From contig JAAOMT010000400.1 in the NCBI GenBank assembly GCA_016748015.1, positions 446,035-510,034 on the forward strand: a stretch of DNA of 64,000 nt, read 5' to 3'. Position 1 is the first letter of the stretch, and every line of letters begins with the position of its first letter. A program made the position numbers and the translations under genes. Source of the DNA: Geosiphon pyriformis uo1. Lineage: Eukaryota > Fungi > Glomeromycota. The notes under the pieces were generated by a model. That model saw nothing but the letters and a program-made list of their open reading frames with translations. It had not been told where the DNA came from and ran no database searches. Below are positions 1-53,361 of the stretch, piece by piece.

Positions 1-1138
1 TTCTTGACAACTTCAATTCCGTCTGGAATGTTGAATCTTTGCTTGCAGTGGGTGTAAATTGACTGGTAATACTCTAGAGTTGTTGCATCTGGTGTGGTTG
101 TCACTTTGAATTTGTTGTTGCTGTGTTATTTCTGTGGGAGAGCACCAAATGTTACTGGAGGTTTTTGGTCTCTTTTCTGTAATATTGTTGATGCCTGTTT
201 GCTATGAATTCACGTTTTCTGAATGTGGTTGAACCTCCAGTAACTGAATTTATCTTCAAATTATTTCTTATAATTTGAACTGCTGGGCTTATAAGTGGAA
301 TGACTAATTCCGTGCCAGTTATTTTGTATAGTTACATTGTAGTAAATGTCAACTCTTTCTCAGGAATTGCTCATCTGGAAGCTCACTAAAAAAAATGTAT
401 AGTTACTTTGCTGTGAAAGTCAACTCTTCTACAGGAATTTTCGTCTGTAGGCTACCCAAATGATTTATAATAAGAAAAGAAAGAGAATAAAAGAAGTGTA
501 AAAGAAAAAGTAAAACTGATGATGTATGGAAGTTGTTTCGGATCCAGGCCTGGAAGTGCTTTAACAGTCTACTGAAATTGGTAGCTAATCAATTTCAAAC
601 TGTTAGTAGGAATTGATTAATTTCAAGGGAAATAATTTAAGAATTTGACTTTTCAAATTTATTTGATATTTTATTTTGTTTTTGTGTATAGAGGATGATT
701 CTAATTATTAAATCTGAAGTAAAATACATTTCCTTGAAGAGAGAAGCTCTTCTTTTATACAACTTGTCATAACACTATTCTATGAACTTGAACTTTGCTA
801 TTTTCTATAATTTTGTCGAACTAAAGATACATTTCAGCAAACTACAAGTTATTTCTGCAAACTATTAGATATTTCGGTGAACTATCAATTATTTCGGCAA
901 ATTTCTTACAAATTTCGAACTTTTTGAATGTTACATAGTTTGGGGTATTGCATGATTGATCATTGTAATTAGGTTACATTTGTGTTATGTACAAATTGGA
1001 TTATTAATTAAATGATAATTTCGGATATTTTGCTAATATAATAAGTGATAATTTGAAATGATAATATATGCTAATTAATGATAAGATTTATAAGGGTAAT
1101 TTTATGCTAAACAATATCTCTAATTTTGTTTGGTAATA
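1..1138 (-). mobile_element. 5' end of a nested LTR retrotransposon (5' LTR 150-1138, PBS, start of internal region); continues off the left edge
   Basis: On the minus strand the LTR ends ...GTAACA at 150, followed by TT+TGGTGCTCTCCCACAGA (PBS-like, 131-147). The other terminus TATTACC (decayed TGTTACC) at 1138 interrupts the end of the RNase H region (ENANG motif) of the Gypsy element to the right. ~20-bp tandem repeats at ~810-920. Confidence 0.7.
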
Positions 1139-1142
1139 CCAT

Positions 1143-4100
1143 TAGCATTTTCGTTTTTTTTTCTTTTTTTGTAATATACTGTATATTTAAATAGTAAAAG
1201 TTTTATTTTCCATCTAGCATGACAGTTGTTTTCAAATTTTTGTTTCTGAATTAATGTCAATCCTTTGTAATTAGTATAGATGTCAAATTTCTGGCTTAAG
1301 TATTTTTTCTATTTCATAACTGCCTAATAAATAGTTAGGTGTTCTAATGCTAGTGTTCTATAGTTTTTTTTGGCTAGACTTAAACTTTGGCTAGCATATG
1401 TTACTGGGTGTTCTCTTTTATCTGGTCTTCTCTGTAATAATACTGCTCCCAATACTTGATCTGATGTATTGGTAGTAATAATAAATGACTTGCTGTGATC
1501 TGAATAGATCAATACTGATGCTTAAATGAGCTTTTTTCTTAAAGTGTCAAAAGCTTTTTGTTATTTTTCAGTCCATTTATATTTCACATTCTTGGCTTAA
1601 AGCTGGTGGAATGGTTGAGCCAGTTTGAAGAAGTTTTGGATAAAGCATTAATAATATCTAGCAAATTCTAAGAATGCTCATAGTTCTATCAAATTTGTTA
1701 GTACTAGAAAGTTTTTGACAATTTCAATCTTGTTTGAATTTATCTTAATGCTATTTTTGCTCATAATATGTTCTAGAAATTTCAATTTCATTTTGTCAAA
1801 AAAGCACTTGGTTGTATTCAGTTTCAATTTTGCTCTTTTCAATCTTTTGAACACTTGCTAAAGATAATACAAATGATCATCAAATGTTTTTAAGAATACA
1901 TTGGTGTTATCCAAATATATAACTACTGATTTCTATAGCAGTCTGGTATAAACAATTTCCATAAACTGTTAAAATGTAGCTAAAGTATTGATTAAGCCAA
2001 ATGGCATGACTTCAAATTCAAAATTCTTTTCTCTGATAGTGAATGTGGTTTTTTTTTGTTAGCTGAATTCATGGCTACTTGCCAATAACCACTATTTAAG
2101 TCTAATATAGAGAACCATTTCTTTTTCTGAAAGCATCAAATAATTCTTGGATTTGTGGAATAGAGTAATTGTCTTCACAAGTTATATCATTGAGTTTTTT
2201 ATAATTTACACAAAAGCAGATTTTTCTATTCTTCTTATAAACTAGTACTACTGGTAATGACTATGGACTTATTAATAGTTGAATTAATTTATTGTTCAAC
2301 ATTCTGTTGATTTTTTGTTAGATGATTTTATGACTGGCTGGTAACACTCAGTATGCTTTCTGTTTAATTGGCATTGCATCTCTAGTTTTGATCTGATGCT
2401 AAATAATATCAGTTCAGCCAAATTTATTTTTACTGGCAAAAATGTTAGTGAATTTGTTAAGTAATATTTTGAGTTGTATCTGTTAAAGTGGGTCTAAGTT
2501 TTCTAAGTTCATTTGTTCTAATTGTTTTGGTTGGAGCAAATAATATTTTTCTTATCCATATATTGTTTATAATGTAATATTTACATATTCACACAGTTGT
2601 AAAAAATTTGAAATAGTGTTTGGTGGTTGGTCTTTAACTTTAGTGTTTAAATATTCAATAGTGGTTTCTTTTAGTATTTCAATAATGTTTCTAGTTATAT
2701 TGTAGATAAGAATTTTGATGTGTTTAGGGCTCTTGACTGGTATGTAAAAATTGGTGATTCTAATTTTTCCTAATTTACAAATGTTAGTTTCTGCTTCAAA
2801 AATTTGGGCTTGATTTTTTACTTTTTTTTCTATGGCTAACAGATACTAGTCATATGGTGAAATAGAAATTAATTGTCAGGTAGAAATAATTTTTTTTTTG
2901 TTAATAACTTTTTCTTTTGCCATATTAACTAATACATCTATTTTTTCTGTGAATCCAAATCCACTTATTTCTCTTGCTGTCATCCCTAATTTTTCTTTTT
3001 TTCTTACTAATATTAACTGAACTATTTTAACCAGAAATAAAAATATCACTTGTGCTATCTTTTTATTTGGTTCAATAATATATTCTTTCTTTAAGTTATT
3101 TTGTAACATTGCAATAATATTTTCTACATATCCTGTGTTAATTATTCCTTCTCTAATGTTAATTTTCTTCTTCACTAAACTAGATTTAGATGTTAATTGA
3201 ACCATAATTGTTGCTAGAATTTCTAGTATTACTTTCAAATCAATACAAGTGTACAAATGTGGTTTCAATTTAATGATATCTTTTTCTGAATATCTAAGAT
3301 CAAATTTGGCATTAGTATTATGTACACATTCCAGCATAATGTCTTCATCATTATTACTAAACCATTTTAGTTTTTGTTTTTTTGTAAGATCAGAAAGTGC
3401 AATATATTGTTTTGAATTTAAATCAAAGTCCAAATTATTGTTATCAATGTTGTTATTTTAGACTGAGCTGAAACTATTGTTTTTATTATCATTATTATCA
3501 GAGTTTGAATTAAGATTGAATAGTGCTTTTGATTCCAATTTGCAGCTACTGATTGGTTCTTCCTCTTTGAAGATCATGTAGATTATGTGTAATGATAGAT
3601 TGTAAATAAGGTTATACTCATTAAAATATTAAAAATCACAGGAAATTAGACAGTATTGACAAAGTCAAGTATTCAGCTGTTTTAGTCATTATTCTTGTTT
3701 TTCTTTATTCAGTGTTAGATTCTGGTAATATTTATGAAATTGCTCAGAATTGTTCTTAATGTTATCAAAAACATCAAAAGTTAGGACGTATTCTAGTTTA
3801 GAGAGTATTAAGAGATTATTCTTGATTTTTAGTATCTTACTAAGTGAAGCACCTTCTGCTTTTACACTTGCCATTCTTCAGATCTCATGTTTGTCATGTA
3901 GATAACCTTCTAATCTTTTTAGTGCTCATTTTTAGACATTATTGATAAACATTCTTTTTATACTCAGTCATTGATTAAAATTGTGTATTGGCACAATTTG
4001 TCACATATTCCTTCTTGTTTAGGAATGTCATTTCACATTCTTTTATCAGGTAAAATGGTTTCACACATAAGACAAGGTTTGTTGTCTCATTTTTTTTGTC

Positions 4101-7100
4101 TTTTTGGTCTTTCAAATTGCTCAAAAACACATAGGTAACAGTAATACTTGGTTGCTGTTAGCTATTCTTTGTTGTTGCCATAGTATGTGCCCATTGATGA
4201 CAATTTCTTGTTACAATCAATGCAAATTAGCTTGAGTTGATAATAGTTTGGCTGTGGTTGAGTGGTAGTAATATATAGTATATAGATAGAGGTTGTTGCT
4301 TGGTGTTTTTCTTCTTTTCTCTCTTTCTTTTTTTCTTTTGTGTAGGCACTAGTAGTAAGTTATTGTGGTTATCATTAGCCCACAAAACTTGGTAGACTTT
4401 CCAGGTAAGTTTTTTTTTTTTCTTCTAATTTAATTAGTGGAGCTTGAATAGTATTGGTTGGTTTAAAATGACCACATATGACTGGTACTCGAATGTGCTA
4501 ACTGTTTTGGCTGAGTTGCAATTCTTGAGTGATCAATTAAGTACAGCATTTGTCTTAAACAACCAGTTATTACCAACCAGAGCTTAGTACTAAGTGGCTT
4601 CTATAATGAAAACTTTAATCAGTACACTAATGCCATTGACTTTGATTGGGAAGTTGTTGATTTTGCTAATTGGAGTCTTGGTGGTTTCATCAACAGTAAT
4701 AATTCTAATGCTAGTAGTGTGATCAACTTGGTGACTTAATTGGTCCATAAATTGCTTGATAATAATGCTGTCTGCTGAACTACTATTTAAGATCAGTTTG
4801 ATAAACTGATCATCAACTTTGGCATCAGTGTATATCATAGTAATGGGTTTTGTGTCCAGAGTGACTTTATTAAATAATAGAGTTATTACTGGTTTCTCAA
4901 ATTCAAAGAGAAAAATCATGGCTAGTAATTCGACATTTGTAATGGTTGCTGAAGGTATATTGTTGGTAAATGGCTTTTGGTTGGTTTTTTAATGATTGGA
5001 TTGAATGTCTTTTGGAGTAACCAAAAGACTTAAATAGTATTGAGTGTTTAGATTTTGTGTGTAGCTAGTTTTCGAATTTTGCTATCATGATCCAGATTGT
5101 TGGACTGCTAAACTAAAGATCAATTGGTGCATTACCATTATTAATTGCCAATTTTGACAGATTTATGTAGTTCTTAGTCTCTGGTTTCTGTTTTAAGATA
5201 AGTTTTGTGATGGTGTTAAAATTGGTTAGATTAATAAATTAGCTGGGTTTGGAATAGTTAATAAATTACTGGGGCTGGGTGTTGATAAATTGGTGCTTGA
5301 TAAATTGGCTGCATTATTTAAGAGTAATAAGGCTAATATTGGTATTGTTTATTTGATAAATTATTGGCATAGTTTGGGATTTGAAATTTGTGATTAAAGT
5401 TTTGATATTGAGTTTTTGATCATTGGTTATTTAACCTTAACTGGCAATCTATTTTTAGATGTTTTTGTTTACCATAATAGTGGCAAATACATATTTCTTG
5501 TAGCCATTGTTAATTTAATGATGATAATTATAATTGATGTTGGAGTCAATTGAAATTTTTTGGGTTTTCATGATATTATGGCAGCTGATAAATAATCTGA
5601 TTGCTATTATTATTAGCTAAATATCTCTCTAGTTTCTGATTAATCAAATCACTAAATTGTTTCAGCTTAGAATCCAATTCAGATGATCTATTCATTACTA
5701 GGTTTACAACTTGAGCTTGTTTGGCTTTTAACTCAGTTGATTTAAAATCTCTGGCATAAGTGACTGTATCTTATAGCATGTCTGGGTGCATTGGCCATAT
5801 TCATTGTAAGATAATGCTGTGTAGACTATAAATGAATTGATTCAAAATTTGAGGTGCTATAAAATAATCCATGTTAATTGCTTGAATCTGGTGCAGATTC
5901 TTATAAAAGCATTTCAGATAAATGGTAACTGCTTCAGTTTTTCCTTGTTTAATAGTAGTAAAATGGGTGAGCAATCAATTAATGCTGTTGTGATTGTTAA
6001 AATACTGTAAAAAAGCAGTTTTGAATGCATCAAATGTGTTGGATTTATTTATAAAACTTTGATACTATGAGTTGGCTGTATCTTGGAGAAAATAAAAAAT
6101 GACTTACAGTGCCCTCACATTATCCCAACCATTGGCTACAATTGCTTTCTCTATATTATTGAGCCAGACTTGAGCATTTTTTTCTTTGCTAGTAAATTTC
6201 TCGAGTTTGATAATAGATACATATGCTATTGATACTAGCTGCTGTAATTGCTGTGGATTTTGTTGATGGTAAGAAATGGGAATTGGGGTTCCTGGTAGAT
6301 AAATCTGTATAATTAAAAGTAGGTTTTTTTGATTAATAGGAACAGAGTTTAGATTGTTCAGGTTTTGTAAAATTGAACCAATCAGAGTTTGTATTTTTGG
6401 GTTTTTTAAGATTGGGTTTTGATTATTAATTTCCTAATCACTATTTTTCTCTTCCTTAGAGTTGATTATTTCTCAAGGACTAGTGATTTCGAAATCTGGT
6501 TGTGGTAGTAGTGATCAAACTCCTGATAGTATTGGGAATCACAATTTAAATTCCTCAAAATACTCACCATATGTTCCTAATAACTTTGCTTTTTTTTGTT
6601 TATTTTGAAACAAAATTCTGTTTAGTGGTGTTGTCACATTTGCAATGAACATACCTATTATATTAATGATGCTTCTGAGTATGTGATGATATAATGGATT
6701 AGCAGATAAATCAAATTTTTGTTTCTTTCAGGTGGATAATTGTATTTGCTTTGGGATTTCTGCTGGTGTTTGTAATCTTTCTTTTCCTTTGTTAGCAAAG
6801 ATAATGAAAAATCTTTGTTTAGTGTACTTTTTAATTTCTCTGTTTATTTCTGTGATTATTGGTACAAATAGATGCTTCTGTGGTAATGTAGTGCTTTAGA
6901 ATAATTTACTGAAGAAGTTGTTAAAAATGGATTCTGGATCTCTTTGGCCTCTCAAATAATATACAATTTTTTTGTTGACATAGCAATTAAAAGCTGATTC
7001 TGTTGGCCAATTATTATTTGTCAATCCTAGATGACTTTTGTAATACTGGAATAAAAATTTCACAAATCCCAAGTGGTTTGTTTTTAGTTTTTCTAATTCT

Positions 7101-7140
7101 GCCACTGTTTTGAATGGTTGTTGTTGATGCTGGTTTTTTG
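1143..7140 (-). pseudogene. gag-pol polyprotein of Gypsy copy 1, many premature stops
   Basis: ORF-track fragments 6896-7168, 4590-4919, 3689-3874, 2876-3433 and 1324-1512 are colinear domains of one polyprotein. Confidence 0.85.
2950..3340 (-). pseudogene. dUTPase domain of Gypsy copy 1
   Basis: All five trimeric dUTPase motifs are recognisable after G>A/C>T decay: AKFDL (AGFDL), KSSL (RSSL), GIINTGYVE (GIIDxGYxG), IAQ, REISGFGFT (RGxxGFGST). Confidence 0.9.
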
Positions 7141-7169
7141 TTAGATTATACCTTACAAAAAACACCAAA

Positions 7170-8015
7170 TGTTACAAGTGATTATTTGGGGTTTCAAATC
7201 AAATAACAAACCTGTAACTTGGTATTTAATAGCTGTTATAATTAATATTCTCTAAAGGTTTTGGTTGAGTTCTTTGTATAATAGACAAATATTCAATAGT
7301 TGTTTTAGTAGCCTTCCAAAATCGCAATTCCATTGAATTTCTTTTTTTAGTATGATGGCCAGTTTATTCTAGTAGTCATGCCCTTTTGGTAAGCTATTCT
7401 TAATTTCTGAGTTCCCTATCTTTATTTCATGGGTCTTTTACCAGACTATTTTTGATGTTAATAACTTAATGCTTAATCTCTTTAATTAGTTAGTAATACA
7501 ATAAAAGAAAGTAAAATAAAGAAAAATAAAAGAAATAAAAAAATAAAAAAATAAGCCAAGACAATAAAAAGTTAGTATCTGTTAATAGCCATAATCAAGA
7601 GCTATTGTTCTAGTGTGATTAAGTATTGGATACTATTAACATATAGTGTTAATAATAAAAAGAATAATTTAAATAGTTATTTTATTAATATTGCTAATTC
7701 TATTCTATAAGATCTTTTTTTTGCTTTTAATGTTCTCACTATATATACATAATTTGAGTTTTATAAGATTGCTCATATTTTTGAGTGATGTGCTATGATT
7801 TCTTAAGCAATGTGCTCTAATTTTCTAAAATTGCTCCATATTGTTGAGCAATATGCCATAATTTTCTGATAATGCTTTATATTACTGAGCAATGTGCCAT
7901 AATTTCTAACAATGCTTTACATTGTTAAACAATGTGCTCATATGTTAACTATTATTTCTCTATTGGTCTATCTGTTTTTTCTATTATTTTCTTGTATGTT
8001 TTTCTATAAGTAACA
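7170..8015 (-). repeat. 5' LTR of Gypsy copy 1
   Basis: TGTTAC...GTAACA termini, ~33-bp U3 tandem repeats at ~7790-7940, adjacent PBS; flank GCAT at 8016-8019. Confidence 0.88.
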
Positions 8016-11000
8016 GCATTAGTAATTTTTTTCAATTGATTAATATTTAATGTGTTTATTATTAAGTATAACAGTATTTCTGAACAGTCTTAAAATTTTA
8101 CTTATAATTAGTATATTGCTTGTGTCTATATAAGTAGATTGTTTTTTTTTACAAATTGTTTTATTTGTTATAATATTATTATATTAAACATTTGTCTTGT
8201 TTTATTTGTATACAAGTACTAAATATTGAGCTTTTGTTCCAAATAATAAAAGCAAAAATTTCTAGAAAATTGTTGTATTCACCATTTTTAATTTTTTTCT
8301 GTTAGCTTCTTATATAGTACTATTGTCTTTGGTATTTTTAATGACATTTTTACTTTTGTTATTATATTATTTACAATGTTTTTAAGTTTTATGTATATCT
8401 TATATTGAACTTTGTATTGGAGTTTTGGTTTTTTTTTTGTGTTTTATATTGAATAGTTTGTTGATTAATTGTAATTTTTATGTTTAGTTTTTAATATTTA
8501 ATAACTTAAAATAATTGTTGGATTAGGAAGTGAATATTGTTTGTAATTTCTATTTTTTCTGTTGTTTTTGTTATGTGTATTGGTTTTTTATATACTGTTT
8601 TAATAGATTAATCTGATGTATTTGTGTCAATAATTATAATTGGTTCCAAATTTCATGAAATTTTATCTGATTGGACTAGTATTTATTGTATTCTCAGTTG
8701 TAAAATATTACTAATAAATGATAATACTATATTGTAGTATAGTTTCAGTTAATTATTATGTACTGCTTTAGCTAAAATTTTGTTGTTTTATCTTAACTTA
8801 TAGGCTCTATTTTCCAGAATTTTTTCAATGTAAAATGAACTGTCTTATTTAGAGTTAAACTTTCTACTTTATTGTTTTTCTGTTTAGTATAATATAAAAA
8901 TACTTTGTCTTTAATTCTAAATTTGGCTGGTTTATTTAATAACTGGTTATTATGTTGTTTTTTTTGTTTTTTCTGTGACTTTTGTATGTTATCAGCTGCT
9001 CTTTATCTTTTGTTTTCTAGAGTTTTTATTAAGTTATATGTATTTTTTAGCAATTTTTCTTGAAAATTGACTTTTATTATTGGTTTAACTAGATATGTAT
9101 TGATTTTTATTTTAACTAATAATATTGCTGTTTTATTATAGACTAATTTAAATAGTATTACTTGTATAATATCTTGTTTTATTGTCTGATAAGCAAATAA
9201 TACTAATAATATAAACAAATTTTATTTGTCTTAGTTTTTTTGGCTGATTTTGGCTATTATTTTACACAATATTCTGTTGAATTTTTTGACTAAGCCATTT
9301 GTTTGTAGATAATATAGTAATAATAATAGTCTTTTAACTCTAGATTTTTGACTTAATTCTATTAATATTCTGTTTACAAAATAAGTTTTTTGGTCTGATA
9401 ACAATTTTTTTGAATATTTATGTCAACAAATTAAATTCTAATATAGAAATTTGGCTATAAATTCTGTATTTGTTCTTTAAATTGCTTTAACTTTTGTCTA
9501 TTTTGTGAGATAATTTATGGCTATTGCTATATATTAGTTGTTTTTGTTGGTTATAATTAATAGTTTAACTAAATTAATTCCAATTTAATTAAATAATTGT
9601 TCTACTTTAATTAGTTTTAATGGTTTACTGAGTCTTGTTCTTCTTCTTCTTTAATAAACATTACAATTTTAAACATATTGAATAATATTTAAATATATTA
9701 ATAGCTAATAGTATCTTTTTCTAGTTTTTTTTATGATTGTTTTTTTATGGAAATGTTCTGCAATTAAATTTGAGTATATATTAAACAATATTGTCTTTTT
9801 TTTTAATTCTGTGATTACTCTAAGTGACTAGTCTAAATTTTTTAATATAGTATATTTTGGTAAATAATAAAATATTTTGATTATTGTTTTATGTTGTTTT
9901 ATATTGTTTTGTTTTTTTTAAGATAATTTTTCTTTAAACTGTTAAGCATTAATATAATATTGAAGTTGTTGGTATTTTGGTGTGTTTATTTTTTGTTATA
10001 TTTTTGGATTAAAATTTTTTTAAATTTGTTTCATTTGTAACAAGCCATTAATATTTCTGTTTTTTTTTTTTATAATATTTAATATAATTAAATAGTAATA
10101 ATTCTATTTTTTATCTTATATGACAATTATTTCCAAATTTTTACTTCTGAATTAATATTAATCTTTTATAATTAATATATATATCAAATTTTTGACTTAA
10201 ATATTCTTTTTATTTGATAACAGTCCAATAAATAACTAAGTATTCTAATGCTAAAATGTCATAGTTCTTTTCAGTTAAACTTAAACTTTAGTTAACATAT
10301 ATTATTAAATGTTTTTATTTATTAGATTTTTTTTGTAATAGTATAGCTCTCAATGTTTATTCAGATGTATTGATAGTAATAATAAATAATTTGTTGTAAT
10401 CTAAATAAATTATTACTAGAGCTTAAATAAGTTTTTTTCTTAATATGTCAAAAACTTCTTGGTAATTTTCAGTTTATTTATATTTAATGTTCTTTGCTTA
10501 GAGCTAATAAAGTAGTTAAACCAATTTAGAAAAGTTTTGTATAAAGCAGTAATAGTATTTAGTAAATTCCAAGAATATTTTTAGTTTTGTTAAGTTTGTT
10601 AATACAAAAAAGTTTTTAACTATTTTGATTTTGTTTGGATCTGTTTTAATGCTGTTTTTGCTTACAATATGTCTTAAAAACTTAAATTCAGTTTTTTCAA
10701 AGAAAAATTTAGTGACATTCAACTTTAGTCTTACTTATTTTAATTTTTCAAACACTTATTAGAGATAATAAAAATGATCATTAAATGTTTTAGAGAATAT
10801 ATTAGTGTTATCTAAATAGATTATTATTGATTTCCATAGTAATTTAATGTAAACAATTTCATTACCTATTGAAAGATAACTAGAACATTGATTAAGCCAA
10901 AAAGCATAATATTGAATTCAAAGTTTTTTTTTCTTATGATAAATACTGTTTTCTTCTTGTCAGCTAAATTTATAGCTACTTATTAGTAATTATTATCTAA

Positions 11001-11979
11001 ATTTAATGTTGAAAACCATTTTTTTTCTTCAAAAGCATTGAATAGTTTTTGAATCTGTAAAGTAGAATAATTGTCTTTACAAATAATACTGTTAAGTTTT
11101 TTATAATTTACACAAAAGTAGATCTTTTCATTTTTTTTTGAATAAATATTATTAGTAATAACTATAAACTTATTAATAATTAAATTAATTTATTGTCTAA
11201 CATACAGTTGATTTCTTAATAAATAATTTTATGATTGGTAGATGGTATTTGGTATGCTTTTTGTTTAATTGGTATTGTATTTCCAGTTTTAATTTAGTGT
11301 TGTATAATGTCAGTTTTGTCAAATTTATTTTTACTTGCAAAAATATCAATGAAATTGTTAAATAGCAGCTTGAATTGTATAAGTTAAAATGAGTCTAAAT
11401 TTCCTAAGTTTATTTGCTTCAATTATTTTGGTTATAGCAAATAACATTCTTTTTGTTTATAAATAATCTGTAATGTAATGTCCACATATTCACACAGTTG
11501 TAAAAAATTTGAAATAGTAATTAATGCTTAATTTTCAACTTTAGTGCTTAAATATCTGATAATAGTTCTATTTAATATTTCTATTGAGTCTTTAGTTATG
11601 TTGTATATTAAAATTTTAATGTGTTTGTGGTTTTTGGCTAATATATAAAAATTAGTGATAACAATTTCTTCTAATCTATAAATAGTAAATTTAACTTTAA
11701 AAATTTGAAATTAATCTTTTTTTTTTTTTTTTATAGCTAATATATATTAATTATATGATAAAATAAAAATTAATTAATAAGTAAAAATAATTTCTTTCTG
11801 ATTAATTGTTTTTTTTTCTGCCATATTAACTGGTATTTTTATTCTATCTGTAAATTTAAATTTTTTTTATTCTTTTTGCTGTAATTCTTATATTTTATTT
11901 TATTTTTACTAATATTAATTGAGTTATTTTACCAAAAATAAAAATATTGTCTGTGTTATTTTTTTATTTGGTTTAATGA

Positions 11980-12809
11980 TGTTACTCATAAAGAAAATGT
12001 ATAAAAGAAAATAATAAGAAAACAAATAGACCAATAGAAGAGTAATAATTAGCATGTGAGCACATTGCTCAGTAATATAAAGCAATATCAGAAATTATAA
12101 CATATTGCTCAGCAATGTGAAGCAATATTAGAAAATTAGGGCATATTGCTCAAGAAATTATAGCACATTATACAAGAATGTAAGCAATTTTATAGAACTT
12201 AAATTATGTATATATAGCAAAAGCATTAGAAGCAAAAAAACAAAATAATTACTAATACCTCTCTATTATTATATTTTTATTAAAATTATCAATATCAATA
12301 AATAATTATTCACTATCTAAATCACTTTTCTTACTATTAATACTTTATGTTAATAGTATTAAATACTTGATTATACTGGAATAATAGCTCTTGATTATGG
12401 CTATTGATGGAATACTAACTTTATTATCTTGGCTTATATTTTATTTCTTTAATTTTCTTTTATATTTTATTTCTTGTTGTTGACTAATTGATTAAGGATT
12501 AAGCACTAAGTTATTGACATCAAGAATTGCCTGGTAAAAGACCTCTGCAAGAGGGTAGATACTTGAATTTAAGGATTACTTATCAAAAAATTACCAGTTA
12601 CTACACTGAGAAAAAAATTCGATAGAATTGCAATTCTGGAAGATTATTAATAAAACAATCATTGAATCTCTGTCTATTATACAAAGAACTCCAACCCAAA
12701 ACCTTTAGATTATGAAAACCTTCAGAATAATTACCAATATAATTAGCTATTGAGCACCAAGTTATGAGTTTGTTATTTGATTCAAAACCCTAAATAATCA
12801 CTTGTAACA
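11980..12809 (+). repeat. Solo LTR inserted in the dUTPase domain of copy 2
   Basis: TGTTACTC...TGTAACA termini; TSD ATGA/ATGG. Removing it restores alignment to the copy 1 dUTPase (ttcaataatatattc vs tttaatggtatatac). Confidence 0.9.
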
Positions 12810-15254: not shown

Positions 15255-15258
<4 letters not shown>

Positions 15259-15295: not shown

Positions 15296-15299
<4 letters not shown>

Positions 15300-16152: not shown

Positions 16153-16194
<42 letters not shown>

Positions 16195-39440: not shown

Positions 39441-39447
39441 AATAAAA

Positions 39448-41935: not shown

Positions 41936-44389
41936 TTTCTTTCTCTCTTATATCTACAAATTCTCAAAAAGCACTTTTCTGAAGAAGTTTTTTTTATTTT
42001 ATTTTTCTTGTTAGTATTTCACAATTTCTCTTTCTAATAATCTCTTTTTCGTAAACTTGGAGACTGCTTTTAGTAGTGACATGTCTAAAAAAAAGGCATC
42101 AAAGAGTGCTTTTCATGGTCCTGCAGGTGGCTCTTTCTCACAGAAAAAAAAAGTTGTGCTTAAAAATATTAAACACTCTGGTAACAAAAAAGATATCTCT
42201 CTGAGCAGATCTGAGCTTAGTGACAATGTGTTTTCTAATGTGGATAGTCTGTTTGGTGATAAAAAAGGTGCTAATATGACTGACATTAATGTTGGGTCTT
42301 TTTTGGGTTCAGCTGCCAATACTCTTAAAGTAAAGTGTGTTAATACTGGTGCTGTTTTTGGTTCCCCACTTGGTTTTCCTAATTTTGACATAAATGATAA
42401 TAAAGAAGTATCTCTTCCTTTTTGTCTTTTAATCTTTCTGGATAAGAAGTGAGTCAATCTCAAAATTGTTAAGACTCAAATGGAAGTCTCAGTTAAGAAA
42501 TTATTTGCTTTGGACATTAATCTTTCAGCTATAGAAGGGAAATTAGCAATGACAAAAACCCAAATCATCAGAAATTTTTTTTCAACAATCAATGGTTTTG
42601 GGGGGGCCACTACCCTTTTAAAATTTGAAGAGATCATCCGATCTACCTTTACTTCAAAAAAAGCATGAAAATGGCTGCATTATTGGCCAAAGAAAAAGAA
42701 ATCAATGTAAACAATGATTTTAAAAAACAAGAAATCCATTCAAATTGGACTGTAGTAATTTAAAAAATTCCTATGAACACACCAAAGAAATAATCATCAC
42801 TGCAGTATCTGTTTTTGGGGAAATTAAGTCAATCAAAATTCAGCTAATTAGAATATGGCAAAAGGCTGTGATGGAATTTGCTAAATTGGGACAAGCAGAG
42901 CAACTTGTATCAAAATAGTTATTTCTTATTGGGAAGAACTCAGTGCATGTGGCTATGGCCATGGAAGATCAGGATACTTGAATATCTAGGGATTACTTTA
43001 GAGTGCTTCTGTTTGCTTTGCCAGTGAGAACAACTGCACATGATCTTGGTACTCTTTTAGAAGGGGCTGGTGGAAAAACCTGTATCATTAATTATTCATT
43101 GAATTCTGGTAACTGGGTTTGCTGTGCCATGGTTGGTTTTGGATCTGAGAAGAATTTGGAGTTTGTGTATCATACTGAGCTGATATTTGGTAGTGTTAAA
43201 CTTTTTTGGACTAGATTGAATTTGGTTTGCTACAGGAATTGTGAATGCTTTGGTCATTCTGCTATGAAGTGTGATGTATCTACTACACCCAATGCTAAAT
43301 TCTTAAGATTTATTAAAAAGGTTATTTCAGACATACATTGTTTTTAGCTGGCAAAGCTATATGTAAAGAAGAGTGTTCCTATCTCCTGTCCTGCTGCTTT
43401 TGGTAACAAGTCTTGAGTGCAGGTAGTTTCAATTGTTTCTCCTTTTGGTGGCTCTTATTTCAGTTCTGGTTCTGGATCTGGTTTTTTTTCTCTTGGTGTC
43501 ATTCATAATAAAGGGAATACTCTGAATAGTCATAATTATTCCTCAATTAACAATTGTCTGGCTTCATTGGAATGCTCTTTGGAATTGTTAGCTGATCAAG
43601 TATCAGATGTTTTGCACAGGTTGAATGGCATGGAGCTGGTGTTTTTGGTGCCTGTTCTCAAAGTTAGACATCTAAATATCTCTATTCTTGAGTTGTCAAT
43701 ATTGGATGCTGATATGATTTTGGATATTCTCCAGCCATTTCTTCTTCCTTTGTCTTCCAAGATAGAAGAAAAGACAGTTGATTTGGGTTTAAATAGTTTA
43801 AAAGTTCTGACTTCTAAAGTTGGCGAGTTGGAATCTAAAATGATAGCTCTTAAAGTTTCTATTAAATCAATTTTGGAGAAGTTGGATCTGTTGTGTATGA
43901 ATTCAGGTTCTTTAACACATCATTCACATCAATAAGTGGGCTTGTTTAAAGGGTGGCTACATGTAATGTTAAAAGTATGACAAATTTGGCTAAACAAGAT
44001 AACATTGTTTATTAACATAGGGATTTGGGTAATATAATTTCTATTGTTACTGAGACAAAATTGAGATCTGATATTAGGCCTTAGATTATGGATAAGTTTG
44101 ATGATGTCTGGGTTTTTACCACTGGTTTGGATGTTGGTTTTTGAGGTGCTAGTATTGTCATTATCATGAACACTTTTTTGGCCTGACATGTTTTGAAAAT
44201 AGATGAGATTCCTAGTCAGTTAGTTTCTGTGTGCCTTTTATTCAAAAACAAGCTTTTAGTTATGATTTTGGGTCTATACGCTGGTGTATCCATTAGTACA
44301 TGTTTTGGTTAAGCTGCTGTCATCAATTCTATGATTTCAAGGTGGTTAATTCCAGCTCTTTTGTGATTTTGGATGGTGACTTTAATGAA
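41936..44389 (+). mobile_element. LINE-A, 5' half (5' UTR, ORF1, start of ORF2 endonuclease up to GDFNE)
   Basis: ORFs 42057-42452, 42480-42668, 43003-43347 and 43417-43935 match ORF1 of LINE-C. The APE N-terminus follows and stops abruptly at GGTGACTTTAATGAA. Confidence 0.9.
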
Positions 44390-44537
44390 TAAAAATTATT
44401 TTCAGATAGATAATATGATTATTTTAAATAATATTTGTTATTTTGTTTGTTAAAGTTTTTAATTAATTAAATATGTTAAATAAGAAACTAATTTTAATAC
44501 TAATATGATTTTTTATAATATAATTTTAAATATTAAT
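44385..44537 (+). mobile_element. LINE-B continuation (post-RNase H); resumes at ~51318-51800 after LINE-C
   Basis: ttaaataatatttgttattttgtt is a decayed SGNxRHFV motif. The 51318+ segment matches the ORF2 C-terminal region. Confidence 0.62.
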
Positions 44538-44666
44538 CTTTATCTCCTTCGTCCCAAATTCCAGAAAAGAGTCAAAATTTTGAAAGAAGTTTTTCTGTTT
44601 TTTTATATACTGTCTTCCACCATTTCACAAGAAACAAACCCTTTTGTTGTTGGTCCAGCTGCCATT

Positions 44667-46505
44667 ATAAGTGGCCCTAGTGTTAAGAGAAGGTCAGCCA
44701 GAGTTTTGACCACTGGTTCAGTTGGTGGTAGTTCAGGTCATAAAATCAAGAAACTCCTCAGTGGTACCAAGCTCTCAAGTAGTGGTGCAACTCTCAAAAG
44801 TGGTGGGTCTGGTCATGTGGTCGGGCAGTTTAATGGCATGGATACTGATGGAGAAGCTTCTGAAGGTAAAGAAGTACCTGATTCCAGGATGAATACGCTT
44901 TAAGCCAAGCATTTCAATTATGGTGCGACTGTCGGCTTTATTAATTATGACATAAAGGAAGAAGAGAAAGTCTCTCTTTTCTCTTGTAAGTTTTTCTCTT
45001 TGGATAAAGTGTGGGTGGATCCCAAAATCATTAAAACTCAAGTAAAAGTCACTGTGAAAAAATCATTTACTTTGGACATTAATCTTTTGGCTATAGAAGA
45101 GAAATTGGCAACAGCCAAGACTCAGATCATAAGAAAATTATTTTCAGGAATCAATAGTTTTGGGAGAGCCACTACCCCCTCAAAATTTGAAGGGATCATC
45201 AAATCTACATTCACGTCTAAAGAAAGCATGGAAAGAGCTGTGTCATTGGCTAGAAAAAAGGGGATTATCATAAACAGCAATCTCAAAAGACAAGGAATTC
45301 GCTCAGATCAGGCCATAGTAATCAAGAAAATTCCCATGGATACACCTAAGAACATGATCATCACTGCAGTAGCTGAATTTGGAGAAATTAAGTTGATCCG
45401 TGTACAACTGATTGGGCTATGGCAGAAGACTGTGGTTGAGTTTGCCAAATCGGAACAGACAGTACAATTGGCTTCTAAGTGGTCATTCCTAATTGGGAAA
45501 GATTTGGTGCGTGTGACTATGGCTGTGAGAAATCGCAAGACTTGGGCTTCTAGAGATTGGTTCAGAGCACTGTTGTTTACTTTGCCAGTGGGAACGACAG
45601 CTCATGATCTTGACAATCTGTTAAAGGAGGCTGACGGGAAAACTTGCATTATCAATCGGTCATTTGAAATGGGCAATAGGGTTCGCTGTGCTGTGGTTGG
45701 TTTTGATTTTGAGGAGAAGCTGGAAGCTGCTTTTTGCATGGAACCAATTTTTGGCGGTGTGAAACTTTCTTGGGCTAGGTTAGACTTGGTTCGGTGTGAA
45801 AAGTGTGGGAGATTTGAACACTTAGCCTTGGAATGCAATGCTTCTGATGTTTCTGTTCTTGCGCTTTCTATTGCTTTGAAAAAAGGAAGACATGTTTTCA
45901 GTATGAATTGCTTTCATTTAGCCAAGTTATATGCAAAGAAAAATGTTCCTATCTCTCAGTCTGCTGCCTTTGGTGACAAATCTTGGGCTCAGATGGTCTC
46001 TCTTGCTTTCTTTGCTGGTGGCTCTCCCTCTGGTTCTGGTTTTGGTTTTGGTTTCTCTTTGTCAGGTGCTTCAGGTTTGGTTGGTGGTGCTTTCTCCTCC
46101 CCAATTGACAGGTCTCTTTTGGATGCTCAGTTGGCGTTTTTGGAGCGCTCTCTTGAACTTTTGGCTGACCAGGTTTCTGGCATTCTTAGAAAATTGAATT
46201 TTGTTGAATTGGTGCCCATGGTGCCATCTTCTGATACTTTTTCTTTGGTTGGCTCTGTACCTGTGGCTCCTGTTTTGGACTCAAATATGGTTTTGGATGG
46301 CGCGTTGACGTTACCCTCTCCCCCTCCCTCAAATGCTGAGTTGGATGTGGGTTTCAGTTCAAGTAGTTCAAAGGTTCTGACCACCAAAGTGGGTGGCTTG
46401 GAGTCTAAAATGTTGGCTCTAGAGGCTTCAGTCAGTTCTGTTTTGGCGAAATTGGATCTCTTGTGTTCTGATTTGGGTTCCTTTTTACTGCTTTCATCCC
46501 AATGA
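44667..46505 (+). pseudogene. LINE-C ORF1 (RRM-like, CCHC knuckle CEKCGRFEHLALEC, coiled coil)
   Basis: ORFs 44505-44903 and 45000-46505 share a frame. The start is inferred (ATA, probably mutated ATG). Confidence 0.8.
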
Positions 46506-49500
46506 GCGGTCTGATTTGGAAATTTGCTACATGTAATGTTTGTAGAATCAATGTCCCTGCCAAGCAGGAGGATGTTATACGTTGGCATCACAATTCTGGC
46601 AATTTGGTCTCGTTCATCATGGAAACAAAGTTGAGGTCTTCTACTAGGCCATAGATTGCAGATAAGTTTGATGAAGTGCGAATTTTTTCTTCAGGATTGG
46701 ATAAGGGTTTTGTTGGTACTGGGGTTGTGATTATTATGAACAGTTCATTGGTTCGACATGTTTCTAAGATTGAAGAGATCCCTGGTCGAGTTATTTTGGT
46801 GTGTCTTTTGTTCAAAGGCAAGCTTTTGGTGACTGTACTTGGTTTGTATGCTGGCGCATCTCTGGGCGTTTGTTTTAGGCAGGCATTTAAGGTTAATTCA
46901 TTCATTGTTAAGGCTGTTAATGCCAGCAATTTTGTTGTCTTGGGTGGAGATTTTAACGAAAATGAATCTGAGAGGAGTGTGAGTTATGGGTTTTGCTTGG
47001 GTTTTGGTCTGGTCAATTCACTTGCTGGCCATCAGTTGACAAAGGCTTCTATGTGGAGCAACTTGAGAGAGATAGAAAAAACTATTGATTACATTTTGGT
47101 TAGTGAGAATCTGTTTTCTGCTGTTGTTAAGCATTGGGTTGGGTCAGTCTCAGAATTTTTTGATACAGACCACAAGGCTGTTATGGTGTCAGTTGGTCTG
47201 GGCAGATTTTTGGATGTTCAGTTGAATAGTTTGCGCAAGCAGGCTAACAAAAATTGTTGGAAGTTCAAGGTCAAGGATGCAGATGCTTCCAAGTGGTCTG
47301 AGTTTAGGGATTGTGTTTCAGCTAAGCTTTTGTTGATCAAGGACCTTTTCTCTGATGCTAAAGCTGGTGGTGATTTGAATACCATGTGGACAATTTTAGG
47401 AAAAGTGATGGTTGAGTCTGCTGATGAGATTTTTTCCAGACAATGGTTTAGTGAATTTCAATGTTCTAAAAATAAGCATTTTTCAAAGTTCTTTGGGTTG
47501 AAGTTACTCGTTGCCAAGATTGTTGGTGTGGTTTGTGCTGGTAACGTGCTTGAAGTTGATTATCTTGTGAGAAAATAGTCTACTTTGGATGAGGCCAAAG
47601 CTTGCACATTCTCTAATTTGGTTAGATTAGATGTAAGTAGTATGGTTCTTCTTAAGTATCTGTCATCAAGTCGCAAAGAATACAGAAAGTTGAAGATGTT
47701 TGAATCGAGGTTGGCTGAGGAAGTTTCTATTAGGAGAGCTGTAGAGAGACACATGGAGAGTTTTGCTTTTAATAAAGAGAGCATGATAAGGAATGTATTG
47801 GATCGGCCTTTTCGCAAGGTAATTCTTGATTATTTGGTTATTAATGATGGTTTGGTTCTGGAATCTGTGGAAATAAAGTCTAAGATAGACGAGATTATGG
47901 TGGAATGGACAAGGAAGCAGGTGGTGCCTACAGTGGTGTCTGAACTCTGGGCTCGCCAGTATGTATCTTTGGATCATATACGGGATGATGCTTTTTCTGG
48001 GGTAATGCATGAAATTGGTTTGGGTGAGCTGTTATCAGTTGTTGGGAGTCTGCCTAATAGCAAGGCTGCTGGCTTGTTTGGCATTCCTAATAAGCTGTAG
48101 AAGCATGGTGGTGATGTGGTGTTAGGTTGTTTTCTGAAGCTGTTGAATACGTGTTTGGTTGTTGGAGGTGTGTCTACTTTGTGGAGAAGAGCGTGAGTTT
48201 TGATGATTCTGAAACCTTATGACTGGGATGAGGTTCTTATGAACACTCAGTCTATTGTGCTGATCGAGACTGCCAGGAAGATTCTCTCCAAGATTCTTTC
48301 TGACAGGATTTTGTCAGCTTGTAGCAAGTTTGGTATTCTGCATGATGATAATTTTTCTGTTTTAAAGGGTACGTCTACCCAGTCTCCAGTGTTTGCTGTC
48401 GGCTCGGTAGTTAAGAATGCTTTGGAAAAAAATCAAGAACTTTGGTTAGTGTTGCAGAATATGAGTAAAGCATATAACTCAGTTGGGTGGTACTACTTGG
48501 AAGCGAGCTTGAAGCACATCAAGATATGCAGTAGGTTTATTAGTTTTTTTAGTGGTATACACAATAATAGGGTTAACAAGATTATGACAAATTTTGGTAT
48601 GTCAGATGGCTATCATGTGCACAATGGTTTGGATCAAGATGAGGTTTTCTCCCTTCTTCTTTGGAGAATCTTCTATAATCCGCTATTGTATGAGGTCAAA
48701 CGGCATAAACATTTGTGTGGATACAGGATTGACACTAAGTTTGTGGTGAGAACTGGTAGAATTAAGAGTAGTGGTGGGATGTCCTTCTTTTTTGCTGCTG
48801 GTGCTTTTGTGAATGATACAATTTGGGTAGGAGATTGCCAGGCTTCCACGCAGTATGCTCTTAATATTGCTAGTGAATTTTTTTCTATCAATGATATTTT
48901 AATTAATAATGAGAAGATGGTGGCTATTCCAATTAATCAGAGTGTCAAGGTTGCTTCATTAAGTATTAGTAATCAGCCGATCTTTATAGCAAAAAAGGGT
49001 GAAGCTTACAGGTACCTGGGAATCTTTTTGTTGACTAAAGAGTTGTCCAAACCTAGTTTGGCCAAGGCATACTCAGATGTCCATTTTTTTACCAATGTAG
49101 TACTCAGAAAAGTCATCACAGACAAGCAGTTTTCTTATTTGGTCTTAGCTGTTTTATAGCCAATTATTAGTTACAGAATGCAGTTTAGTTTTGTCTCCTC
49201 TGGTATATGCCACAAGTGGGACATTTTGGTAAGGAAGGGTCTCAGGTCTAAGGCTTGCTTACCTCGTGACTTCCTGAATGAAGCTTTGCATTATTCTTCT
49301 TTTTATGGCTTGAAGCCTTTCGATCAGATACAGTCCAAAAGCAAGATGGCTGCTGTGATCTTTTTTTCAAATGCTCTGGGTATTCTTGGTCGGTTGTTTC
49401 TCCATCGCTTCTTGGATTTGCAGGTTCTTGGGTGAATGTTCTTGAATCCATTGCAGTTTCCAGTCAAGCTGCATATTAGTCCTGTGAACAATTTTTTAGC

Positions 49501-51171
49501 TGGTATGGTCAAAATCTTTTTGGATTGTGAGCTGTTTTTAGTGAATATTCTGCCTAGTGCTTTTAGGGATCCTGGTGTTTTTCCTATGTCTGTGATTTTG
49601 GGGAAGTCTTTGTTTCTTAGTTGTGTTTGTTCTTTAAAGCATTTTGGGATTGCCTTTAGTAACAGACTTCTTGACAAAAAAGATGCTGTAATGGATTGGA
49701 AGACTTTTCATCATTGAAAAAAACTTGATCCCAGGGGCCCTGTGTTTCATTGGTTCAATGTCATGCATAAGTTTTTGCTGGATAGGGGCTTGGCACCACA
49801 TACTGCTAATAATGCTGGTGGTTCTTTGGGCTGTAGTGTTTTGGACTCTGAACAGTTTGCTTTTGTGCGAGATGATTTGCTTGAAGTTTGGTCTGACTCT
49901 TTGGATGTTTATACTGATGGTTCATTGAAATCAGCTGGCTCCTCCAGCATGGTTAGTGGGGCCGCTGCTTATTTTTCTGCTTTGGATGCAGGAGTTGGTG
50001 TTGGTGTATGTGGGCTTTTATCTTCGACTCTGTTGGAATTGCAGGCTGTGGCTCTTGCTCTGGAATGCATTCCTTTCTCTTGTTCAGTGGTTTTGTATCT
50101 CAACAGCCAAGTTGCCATTGATGCGTGTGTGTCTGAATTGGCTTTTGTTGTCCCTGACTTTCACAATCATTGTTGGATTGAGAGAAAACATGTTGCCAAT
50201 TTAATTAGGGATAAGGATCTTGCTGTGAGTTGGGAGTTTCTGGCAATGATCAAGCTGATGCACTAGCTGGTAAGGCTGTTGGCTCTCCCATTTTTTTGCC
50301 GTCTGGAGTTCATGAGTGTTTTCTGTTGGCTAAGGATACTGCAGTTTCAGGTAATGTTCGTCACTTTGTTAGGGATGTTTTTAGATCTGTTTGTTGTGCT
50401 CGTTGGGAGACTGGTCCGGGTTATGATGTGGTTCCAGCTATTCCATTGCAGCATTTTGATTGGGACATTTCCGCATGGGTCTGGCATCCTGACTTGTATA
50501 TGCTTGCTGAATTTACCAGCTGGAAATTGGCAAGTTTTCGCACATACTTGATGAAGGCTCTACATAGAAAATTGCCAGTGGTTGTTCACAAAAAATTGTA
50601 CAATAAACATTATCCTGGTGTTCAGTGTTTGTTGTGCGATGAAGTGGAGTTGTCTGACCATGTTTTTACTTGTTTTCGAAATGTTTATGTGTGGGAAGAT
50701 ATTCTGTCAGAGATATCTGCTCATTGGATTTCCATGGCTGGTGCGTGTAATTCGTCTTCTTCCTCTGTTTTAAGGACTCTTAATCTCTGCTAGTCGGACG
50801 TTGGCTTGTATTCAGTCATGTATAGAGGATTTGTGCTTAAGGATTGGTGTGCAGAGGCTGTTGGCATTTTTAAGGATGTTAAGTGTGCTTCTGGTGTGGT
50901 TGTTAACTTTGTGAGGTATTTGGTTGAGTTACATCGATCTAAAGTGTGGTTGGTTAGATCTAAATTTAGGGTAAACATGGAAAAAGCAGGTTTGGTTGGT
51001 GATGATAGTTTGGTGTTAGGACTGTTGCATTGTATGACTTCTATGCTTTCGGATGATGTGATCAGGTTGCTTGGCATTGTGGAGTCTTTTGCTGTAAGTT
51101 TTGGCTGTCGCAGGCCTTGTCTTTTTTTTTCCAGTTTGGATGGTAATCTGTATGTTAGTTTAAGTGTATAG
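46502..51171 (+). pseudogene. LINE-C ORF2 (APE endonuclease, reverse transcriptase, RNase H, C-terminal zinc finger)
   Basis: GGDFNE, TIDYILV, DTDH (APE); AFV[D]DT (RT); VYTDGS...ELQAV...GNDQADALA (RNase H); CLLCDEVELSDHVFTC. In-frame stops and one frameshifting deletion near 50230. Confidence 0.92.
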
Positions 51172-53361
51172 TGTTGTCTTGTCTGGTCCGAGTGGCTTGC
51201 CACATGTAGAAAGTGTGTGAATTGCATTTAGTTTGAGCCACTTGGTTTGGTTCTATGTACTAGGTAGTGGTTGGACTTCACTCATTAAATGAATAAAAAA
51301 AAAAAAAAAATATTAATAAATATTGTATATTTATTGTTTAATAATTAAATTTATATATAAATTATAATTTTACTAACAAATTTATAATTAAAATATATAT
51401 ATATCTTATAAAAACTGTTTACAGATAAATTTTTATTGTTGTTTAAAAATAGTTATATAATTAACAATATTCTAAAATAATTTGTTTTTATTATAAAAAG
51501 ATTGAATTCTTAAATTATATCTTTATATATGAATCTAATACTGATATTTAATTGGATTTTTTATATAATTTGTTAAAGTTTTGGTTTTTTTATGTAGATA
51601 TTGTTGGTTTTTGTTCTTTCATAATACAGTTTTTAAGTTGTAGTGTTTTAAACAGTTTAATTTATATGATTTTATACAAAGATATTGTCTTTAATAATTG
51701 ATATATTAATATATTAATAGTTTTTAAAGATATTAAATCAGCTTAATTATTAATAATCAATCTTATTTATTAATTAATAAAGAATTATAAAGAAAAAATT
51801 TAGTTGTATTAATTTAAGTAGAAAGCAGTAATAAAAAAAAATAATTTGGTAAATAATTTACATATTATTTTTTATTGTTTATATAGTTTGGTAGCAAATT
51901 TGTTAAATAAAATTATTTAGTTATTCGGTTATTAAATATTAATAAAGTTATAGCTATTAGTTTTGAGTTATATAATTAATATATATTTTTTTGTTTAAAT
52001 AATAATATTAATATTATAATAAGTAAATAGTATAGTTTTAATCAATTTAAATAGCTAATTATATATAATAATAAAAATTATATTTAGTTGTAAATTCTTT
52101 ATTATTTTATGTATACTAGATAATAATTAGACTATACTTGTTAAATATATAATAATAATAATAATAATAATAAATTTTTTTTTAAATAAATTAAAATAAA
52201 AATAATTTTGTATTACTTGTTAAAATCAATTATTAATTTGAATTACATAATTAAAATCTTATAAATTATTTTAAATTTTGTATTAAATATAACAAAAAAG
52301 TTAAAAAAAAATAAAACATCAAAAATTAAAATATTTATATAATATAAATTTAGATGACTAATTATGTATAAAAAAACATAATTATTTTTTATTTTAATAT
52401 TTATTGTATGTTCTAAAATAATTAAATTATACTTCATTAAAGCTAAAAATAAATTAATGTTTTACCAATTTTTTTTAAATAAATTGATTTTTAATATTTT
52501 TATTTGTGTTTAATAATAATAATATCTTAATTTGTAATTAATATAATGTTTAATTGTTATATGATTATTGCTTAAAATTATATAAAGATAATTAATGTGA
52601 TACTTATTTATCATATTCACAATTCTATCTTTTAATGTGCAATTTTTAAGAAAATAAAAATTTTCATATAATAAAATATTTACTTTACTTGGCATTCAAA
52701 TTTGAATTAAATATTTAAGCCCGAATGATCAACAAATTCCCACGTTAAAAGGCCGAAGATCACGGAAATCTTGTTCTGTGTCAATAAAAGATGGCGTAAG
52801 AAATTGAATGATCTTCTGTACTATAATTCGAATACTAGTTTGTCTATGTTGTAGAATCTACATTTACTACATCATCCCCCTACAGTGTATCATTGCCTTT
52901 TTCCCACATCCGATTTACTGGATTACCAATTTACTTTTTATCGTTCCCGCATGACTGTACTCGATTGGGCAGTCTGCGGATAACAAAAAACAAACAATAT
53001 TTCTTACTATTTGTTTGTTTCCTCTTTTTTTTTAATCTTTCACACGTTCCCTTAATTCACCCAATACGTTCGTTCAATCCCGGTATTTTTTCTTTCAATA
53101 CTATAAATTGAACAAGGGAAGCCTTAAGCTTTCCAGAGTTCTAGTCGTCGTCAGCAACCGCGTGTCAAAGTTTCGTTTCGACATCATCTCTAACATATAG
53201 GTCGAACACTTGGGCGGCTCCGCCCTTAAGCTGCCTTCCAAGCCACAAAAACTTTGCGTCGTCGGTCCTCCTTATTGTATAAGCTTACTTAGTTTTTCTT
53301 TTTTATCATTACAATATTTGCTTTTCACATACTGAACAGGAATAAAATTTTGACCTAAGTT

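Follow-up and report, generated by a model that had tools for sequence, protein, structure and literature searches.

What destroys retrotransposons in the genome of Geosiphon pyriformis, and does the process stay within them? This question is raised by a stretch of 64,000 nucleotides of strain uo1 (assembly GCA_016748015.1, contig JAAOMT010000400.1, positions 446,035 to 510,034 of the forward strand; hereafter the window), in which a domain of nested Gypsy-type and long interspersed nuclear element (LINE) copies meets a domain of genes. From the letters alone, an earlier note had described all-context hypermutation of C to T and G to A, confined to the repeats and resembling repeat-induced point mutation (RIP), and had offered as its source either a repeat-directed mutator or dense non-CpG methylation followed by deamination. 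We show here that the hypermutation is real, strong and family-wide. The second source fits the data better, and the decay is RIP-like in its outcome only. With a probability of roughly 0.6, we attribute it to repeat-confined methylation of cytosine in all contexts, followed by independent deamination.

Directional loss of cytosine in the repeats

The reverse transcriptase of LINE-C, the least decayed LINE copy in the window, has 561 relatives at E<=1e-20; among the best 120, 118 carry the name G. pyriformis. A representative search gave the same LINE family, with 10 of 10 matches looked up belonging to G. pyriformis. As ancestor we used the majority residues of 120 family proteins after removal of columns close to gaps or in stretches that aligned poorly, which left 863 of 1549 columns at 60% agreement for family-wide counts and 713 columns at 70% for the copies of the window. 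Over 50772 copy-columns, changes of C-to-T type number 2194 and those of G-to-A type 3208, while radical reverse transitions number 134 and transversions 182. Calibrated, C-to-T runs at 77-95 times each transversion type and T-to-C at only 2-3 times, in counts limited by gene models that hide stop codons and by a best-120 set that favours less decayed copies. The C-to-T load lies between 3 and 20% among the 120 copies, a spread twice that of shuffled data. Among named G. pyriformis gene models, at least 128 include sequence of decayed LINEs, often with apparent gaps where frames are broken, and such copies likely inflate the gene counts of this genome.

Self-comparison and protein mapping gave the following architecture on the repeat side of the window, with ancestral C/G counts from the 713 columns.

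1-52715, no strand: repeat domain, made of Gypsy and LINE copies nested in one another, depleted of CpG and decayed by C-to-T change in all contexts
1154-7900, minus strand: Gypsy-type copy G1 (ends approximate), with a dUTPase open reading frame (ORF) at 2876-3457
8203-25043, mixed strands: more decayed Gypsy copies and long terminal repeats (LTRs) at about 18-20% GC; G2 pieces on the minus strand, G3 (19550-25043) on the plus strand
16961-17757, plus strand: solo LTR (16965-17753) with a 4-bp target-site duplication, left GTGC at 16961-16964, right ATAT at 17754-17757
26480-34050, minus strand: LINE-A, split by an LTR element; 93 of 425 ancestral C/G transitioned
30490-33683, plus strand: LTR element inside LINE-A, with LTRs at 30490-31447 and 32716-33683 and a 20-N gap within
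34052-41096, minus strand: LINE-B (34052-37095 and 39586-41096), 12% GC, zero CpG; 221 of 323 ancestral C/G transitioned
37132-39445, plus strand: element E, a short LINE-related insert within LINE-B, 33% GC, CpG observed-to-expected ratio (o/e) 0.05
42015-44396, plus strand: 5' part of LINE-D, 34% GC, CpG o/e 0.06
44484-51290, plus strand: LINE-C, least decayed, stop-broken (ORF1, endonuclease, reverse transcriptase, RNase H); 62 of 493 ancestral C/G transitioned, 0 transverted
51336-52164, plus strand: 3' part of LINE-F, the last recognisable transposon; 40 of 52 ancestral C/G changed
52170-52715, no strand: flank of 546 bp without detectable homology, 10.6% GC, no CpG

Loss of ancestral C/G by transition thus amounts to 13% in LINE-C, 22% in LINE-A, 68% in LINE-B and 77% in LINE-F. 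In the same order, transversions were found at 3/1247, 15/1096, 38/851 and 6/126 sites and T-to-C changes at 11/754, 11/671, 2/528 and 1/74, and the corrected C-to-T rate is 112, 37, 57 and 68 times that of each transversion type, with wide intervals and with alignments for LINE-A, LINE-B and LINE-F that tolerated transitions. Stop codons sit at consensus Trp, Gln and Arg positions, as the earlier note had read them, and LINE-B alone holds 17 Trp codons turned into TAA. Decay also follows nesting as described there: LINE-C (13%) lies within LINE-F (77%), of which an upstream piece likely remains at 44390-44490, and element E (33% GC) lies within LINE-B (12%). Transversions rise with decay in the four window copies. 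This order reflects age only and does not separate methylation decay from a mutator. Nesting of LINE-A in LINE-B is unproven, because a search of 25700-26465 for the missing 3' part of LINE-B gave a score of only 42.5, below the shuffle maximum of 46.5. Self-comparison detected no non-transposon duplicate in the window, and a purine/pyrimidine dot plot of the window gave noise only.

Nucleotide comparisons agree in direction. Contigs of sequencing run X1, from which this DNA possibly derives, differ over 44001-52100 at 1183 transition places and 206 transversion places; in the best 40 of 1389 rows, 30 sites are a C lost in the window (12 CpA, 10 CpC, 8 CpT), seven are a window C that the family lacks and three are transversions. 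Three of the four sequencing runs placed only 1-3 short pieces on LINE-C and are uninformative on expression.

The two LTRs of the element inside LINE-A are 894 bases identical and differ by 60 transitions, 3 transversions and 3 indel events; with one further transversion just outside, 60/64 deviates from a 2:1 ratio (p=2e-7). For their first 230 bp, 15 differences had been counted by eye, and exactly 15 are present, all of them transitions; the indel reported there is absent. Polarisation with five other LTRs is weak: the outgroup carries C/G at 35 of 51 differing sites, at 170 of 221 shared-C/G sites and at 118 of 593 shared-A/T sites. The element is flanked by an ATAT target-site duplication (30486-30489 and 33684-33687). 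For the solo LTR, the proposed decay of a duplication from GTGC to ATAT was borne out, and the matching empty site at 6217-6220 reads ATAC. Both pairs, ATAT/ATAT and GTGC/ATAT, fit decayed NCGN targets.

The Gypsy copies together span about 1.2-25 kb. We take G1-type copies to be Gypsy elements from their LTR and pol anatomy. The ORF of G1 carries a dUTPase domain (PF00692, E 7.6e-10), and a piece matching it sits at 32260-32664, within the LTR element, whose interior is short. This short interior may be an assembly collapse; its two LTRs are nevertheless distinct. Assembly gaps of 20 N lie in poly-A runs at 16133-16152 and 31710-31729, and short tandem arrays occur within Gypsy/LTR sequence at 16490-16712 (a 10-bp based period) and at about 7780-7940.

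Sequence context and strand of the changes

Loss of cytosine is not limited to CpG. At codons that fix a non-CpG context, the 120 proteins show His>Tyr at 210/1346, Met>Ile at 80/579, Cys>Tyr at 70/933, Pro>Ser at 206/1389 and Gly>Asp/Glu at 313/3838, against 5/3838 for Gly>Val, 0/1244 for Tyr>Cys and 0/1008 for Trp>Arg. CpG columns (30 Arg columns, 507/1582 retained) decay fastest: their rate is 0.57 or more, compared with 0.08-0.17 for the codon-fixed CpA and CpC classes and 0.37 for five AGR columns in CpT context. Within the LTR pair, 22 transitions fall in CpT, 20 in CpA, 10 in CpC and 4 in CpG, and 4 are ambiguous; 52 of the 60 are thus unambiguously non-CpG, which rules out CpG-only decay and agrees with the mostly non-CpG changes of the earlier note. 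Non-CpG cytosines of the pair differ at 18-21% irrespective of the 3' base (p=0.89 for A, C and T), and CpG sites at 4 of 4. The suggestion that CpA leads did not survive: across five pairs of copies the effect of the 3' base is non-significant in four, and in the fifth CpA is lowest.

Two further preferences complete the ranking. TpC changed more than GpC in all five pairs (0.74-0.79 against 0.43-0.66 in Gypsy pairs), and the LTR pair shows the 5' pyrimidine effect as 29/113 TpC and 11/45 CpC against 6/67 ApC and 3/33 GpC (p=0.014). With the five pairs pooled, some of which share a copy, 104/254 CHG sites (H being A, C or T) changed against 759/1461 CHH sites (p=0.0014); the LTR pair alone gives 7/42 and 41/201. 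Enrichment of CWG (W being A or T) climbs as decay advances: it is 1.0 in genes, 1.27 in LINE-C and 2.1 in LINE-B. The context ranking is CpG > CHH > CHG, with TpC > GpC. By the usual composite RIP index only LINE-B scores above zero (0.46, 0.51), all other parts lying near zero or below; this may explain why the pattern has so far gone unnoticed.

Strand-coordinated mutation tracts, laid down in each round, are a feature of RIP. In the LINE family the 120 copies show no heterogeneity in their C>T:G>A ratio (chi2 101, df 119, p=0.88), the share of C>T-type changes is 0.26-0.60 in each of them, and both strands are affected similarly. Adjacent changes are of the same type in a fraction of 0.511, with a null of 0.522 +/- 0.006, and runs tests on both LTRs revealed no strand-coordinated tracts. 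The pattern is more in keeping with independent events spread over time than with processive rounds, although many light rounds could mask coordination. Editing of single-stranded cDNA of the APOBEC/AID type, which marks one strand per copy, is ruled out by changes on both strands in all 120 copies; the TpC preference here is at most about threefold.

Edge of the decay and the gene domain

The near-absence of CpG in the repeats and its abrupt return at about 52720, both noted before, were confirmed. Positions 1-52719 hold 129 CpG where 851 are expected (o/e 0.15), and 52720-63480 hold 253 where 272 are expected (o/e 0.93); per cytosine this is 129/6288 against 253/1810 (Fisher p=2e-79). LINE-C retains 78 CpG (o/e 0.30), LINE-B none. 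GC per 100 bases leaps from 17 (52601-52700) to 36 (52701-52800). Two features describe this side of the window.

52680-52720, no strand: GC/CpG boundary, change-point 52715, support interval 52680-52720
52716-63480, no strand: gene domain, used as control, with a PH-domain gene, a GRF zinc-finger gene, a transaldolase-like gene and a 401-aa gene

The claim of a sharp edge therefore stands, tens of bases wide. The claim of confinement to repeats stands in a weaker form: the edge lies about 550 bp beyond the last recognisable transposon and some 800 bp before 53514, where the PH gene has its likely start codon, and repeat specificity is inferred from composition. A C-to-T rate of 40-60 times a transversion predicts an equilibrium of 5-7% GC (or lower) for neutral DNA. 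Intergenic GC in the gene domain is 21-30% and GC at fourfold sites 0.29-0.31, which argues for repeat-specific decay. Gene-side spacers also lack the decay signature, with TpC o/e of 1.05-1.38 against 0.54 in LINE-B and CWG at 0.91 against 2.1.

The 546-bp flank between LINE-F and the edge is in composition nearer to LINE-B (p=0.13) than to gene-side spacers (p=0.006) and may be an old relic. A homology search with it detected nothing (best score 53, shuffles 46-48); likely it is either a mutated flank or a relic decayed beyond recognition. The upstream region of the PH gene (52716-53513) is CpG-rich (o/e 1.21, 36% GC), starts exactly at the boundary and is a candidate protected promoter. The exon model of this gene is imperfect at the first and last intron. 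Its protein has 11 matches among Glomeromycotina proteins, nine of them assigned to Racocetra, Gigaspora, Dentiscutata, Scutellospora, Cetraspora or Entrophospora; these and the relatives of the LINE-C reverse transcriptase agree with a genome of Glomeromycotina type, as had been supposed.

Further along, an intron-containing gene lies on the minus strand at 58880-60410, which from its translation we take to be transaldolase-like, and a (TAA)n repeat of about 320 bp occupies 63487-63807. Rfam gave 0 matches in 52100-64000, and ARAGORN gave 0 genes.

Origin and meaning of the decay

We propose that silenced repeats are methylated, with DNMT1 presumably acting at CpG and DIM-2-like enzymes at the other sites. 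The methylated bases would then be deaminated one by one, spontaneously or with enzymatic help, giving C-to-T changes in every context and on either strand, with CpG changing fastest. Such changes would accumulate steadily with copy age and may spread about 550 bp into flanking DNA, stopping at the candidate protected promoter. The decay shares with that known from methylated repeats a CpG class that is fastest, changes on both strands and independent events, and probably a load that grows with age. It differs in that non-CpG loss is only about 3-7 times slower than CpG loss, so that old copies reach about 12% GC.

Of the enzymes asked for in the earlier note, the methyltransferases are covered by a published survey. 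Its Dataset S1 (PMC9963178) has, in its 83 rows of C5-methyltransferases, three DNMT1 rows for G. pyriformis, one of 1326 aa, and two DIM2 rows, of 1188 aa and of 1244 aa, which reach 26-28% against DIM-2 of N. crassa in the reciprocal search; this table has no RID1 or DNMT5 row for the species. In Phycomyces, which has DIM2 and DNMT1, the methylation reported is 3.4% at CG, 0.9% at CHH and 0.5% at CHG (PMC11258239). The mutation ranking in Geosiphon resembles this methylome ranking and not the mutation ranking of RIP, and strand coordination is lacking; for these reasons we prefer methylation and deamination to RIP. In Rhizophagus, liquid chromatography-mass spectrometry is reported to find 32.5-49.5% of cytosines methylated (PMC8298701). 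Non-CpG 5-methylcytosine (5mC) would be considerable there, because this total exceeds the capacity of CG sites, of which those scored are given as 13.8% of cytosines (PMC8647823). Sequencing methylomes of arbuscular mycorrhizal fungi, as far as these two sources describe them, scored CpG only (PMC8647823, PMC13443276).

Several observations weigh against this explanation. By comparison with rates at methyl-CpG in mammals, the non-CpG rate looks high if deamination were spontaneous alone. On the gene side, two AT-rich spacer stretches drop to 17% GC, CpG o/e is 0.63-0.74 in three of four spacers, and the PH introns hold 2 CpG where 6.5 are expected, under the imperfect intron model. Older repeat pairs show transition:transversion ratios of only 0.8-4.2, likely due to subfamily divergence. 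Conservative reverse changes are frequent (Ile>Val 9.0%, Lys>Arg 6.0%) and 814 changes were left unclassified in the family-wide counts; both probably reflect subfamilies. Across the 120 copies no significant correlation links the C-to-T load to the remaining changes (rho 0.15, p=0.11), and the clock reading therefore rests on the four copies of the window. In addition, the clade of arbuscular mycorrhizal fungi is credited with RID and DNMT5 in one account (PMC8298701), and Rhizophagus and Gigaspora also have DIM2 in the survey table (PMC9963178), yet RIP signatures are reported absent from Gigaspora (PMC8647823).

Canonical RID-dependent RIP, as in Neurospora crassa and other Pezizomycotina, resembles the decay in its C:G to T:A changes in repeats, its AT-rich relics with stops at Trp, Gln and Arg codons, its sharp AT-rich and GC-rich compartments and its scarcity of near-identical copies. 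As a class it is rejected: Geosiphon shows no CpA preference and no strand coordination, has no RID row in the survey table (PMC9963178) and loses CpG fastest. A more serious rival is an active, homology-triggered mutator that works without RID, through a DIM-2-like enzyme with or without a deaminase, in many light rounds, premeiotic or mitotic, and with relaxed context; we consider it rather unlikely. It would account for a C-to-T rate so high relative to other substitutions, for 120 family clusters that each have a single member, so that no two copies are 90% alike at the protein level, and for a flank decayed as LINE-B. The survey table gives Geosiphon two DIM-2-like genes and Jimgerdemannia three, whereas three species of Rhizophagus and two of Gigaspora have a single one apiece (PMC9963178). 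DIM-2 is described as methylating every dinucleotide, with RIP mutations that are strongly CpA and extend into single-copy flanks (bioRxiv 10.1101/115501), and Dim2 of Zymoseptoria tritici as a mitotic mutator that raises the mutation rate more than tenfold, with over 98% of changes at CpA and CG spared (PMC8016269). DIM-5/DIM-2-mediated RIP and Zymoseptoria Dim2 thus share with Geosiphon independence from RID, presence of DIM-2, a C-to-T share above 90% where comparisons are cleanest and a possible flank spread. However, both characterised mutators act nearly exclusively on CpA as reported, while in Geosiphon all contexts are hit, CpG most and CpA without preference. The missing strand coordination also speaks against a mutator, although many small rounds would conceal it.

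Damage to heterochromatin independent of methylation, by a TpC-preferring deaminase or by unrepaired ultraviolet (UV) dipyrimidines on top of ordinary CpG decay, appears quite improbable. Such damage would leave the 5' pyrimidine preference of the LTR pair, its two CC/TT tandem differences and the excess of TpC over GpC in the Gypsy pairs. The preference is at most about threefold, though, and ApC and GpC are still heavily changed (Ala>Val 11.5%, Thr>Ile/Met 15.2%); both strands are affected to a similar degree per copy, unlike in cDNA editing, and the resistance of CHG is unexplained. UV is disfavoured in particular, since double changes of CC to TT (Pro>Phe at 2.2%, Gly>Asn/Lys at 1.9%) are near the product of the single rates by a hand estimate.

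An extreme C-to-T bias of the whole genome, with GC in the gene domain upheld by selection or biased gene conversion and the repeats neutral, might be read from the spacers of only 17% GC; it would predict at most 5-7% GC where spacers have 21-30% and fourfold sites about 30%, and the gene-side CpG o/e of 0.93, the spacers without TpC deficit or CWG excess and an edge merely tens of bases wide make it very improbable. Basidiomycete transposons reportedly show hypermutation of CpG type. CpG methylation and CpG decay alone can practically be dismissed here, for although CpG is the fastest class and nearly gone, codon-fixed CpA and CpC changes reach 8-16% and all 30 lost-C sites of LINE-C in the best 40 of 1389 X1 rows have a non-G neighbour in the window.

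The C-to-T skew may not be peculiar to Geosiphon. A metagenome scan with 58 candidates gave one LINE locus with 63 relatives, a few named Rhizophagus, Diversispora and Gigaspora. Clustering of related LINEs at >=90% identity gave 10 clusters with 119 members listed, one named Gigaspora rosea, whose variants comprise 295 of C>T/G>A type, 24 of transversion type, 32 radical and 40 other reverse changes and 66 others, a skew of about 32x that selection on intact ORFs would inflate. Relatives beyond Geosiphon include ORFs of 1750-1990 aa and near-identical clusters, yet the C-to-T skew is present in them, in weaker form. As a lead, this suggests a skew wider than Geosiphon, with Geosiphon as the extreme.

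RIP-like signatures are described as confined to ascomycetes (PMC12543289), and Geosiphon was not found in the searched part of the supplements to that study. They are reported as undetected in Gigaspora or Mucoromycotina (PMC8647823), and the term 'RIP' is absent from the available part of a study of Geosiphon transposons (PMC11952901). No report of such decay in Glomeromycotina was found in the literature searched, which included few subscription papers and did not cover the Geosiphon genome paper.

It is a tentative possibility that a repeat mutator free of RID and relaxed in its context operates in Glomeromycotina and Endogonales, with duplicated DIM-2-like enzymes at its core, as an active genome defence outside Dikarya that resembles RIP. 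If so, this mutator would be a possible model of the ancestral state that preceded CpA-specific RIP. Methylation and deamination, in turn, predict non-CpG 5mC on the repeats, with CG > CHH > CHG and TpC > GpC, ending at 52715. Repeat destruction in Geosiphon has RIP-like strength and a different fingerprint, one that indices based on CpA miss. This would imply that the pattern should not be taken as evidence for sex, that divergence-based ages of transposons are inflated in such genomes, and that many gene models of G. pyriformis are decayed LINEs.

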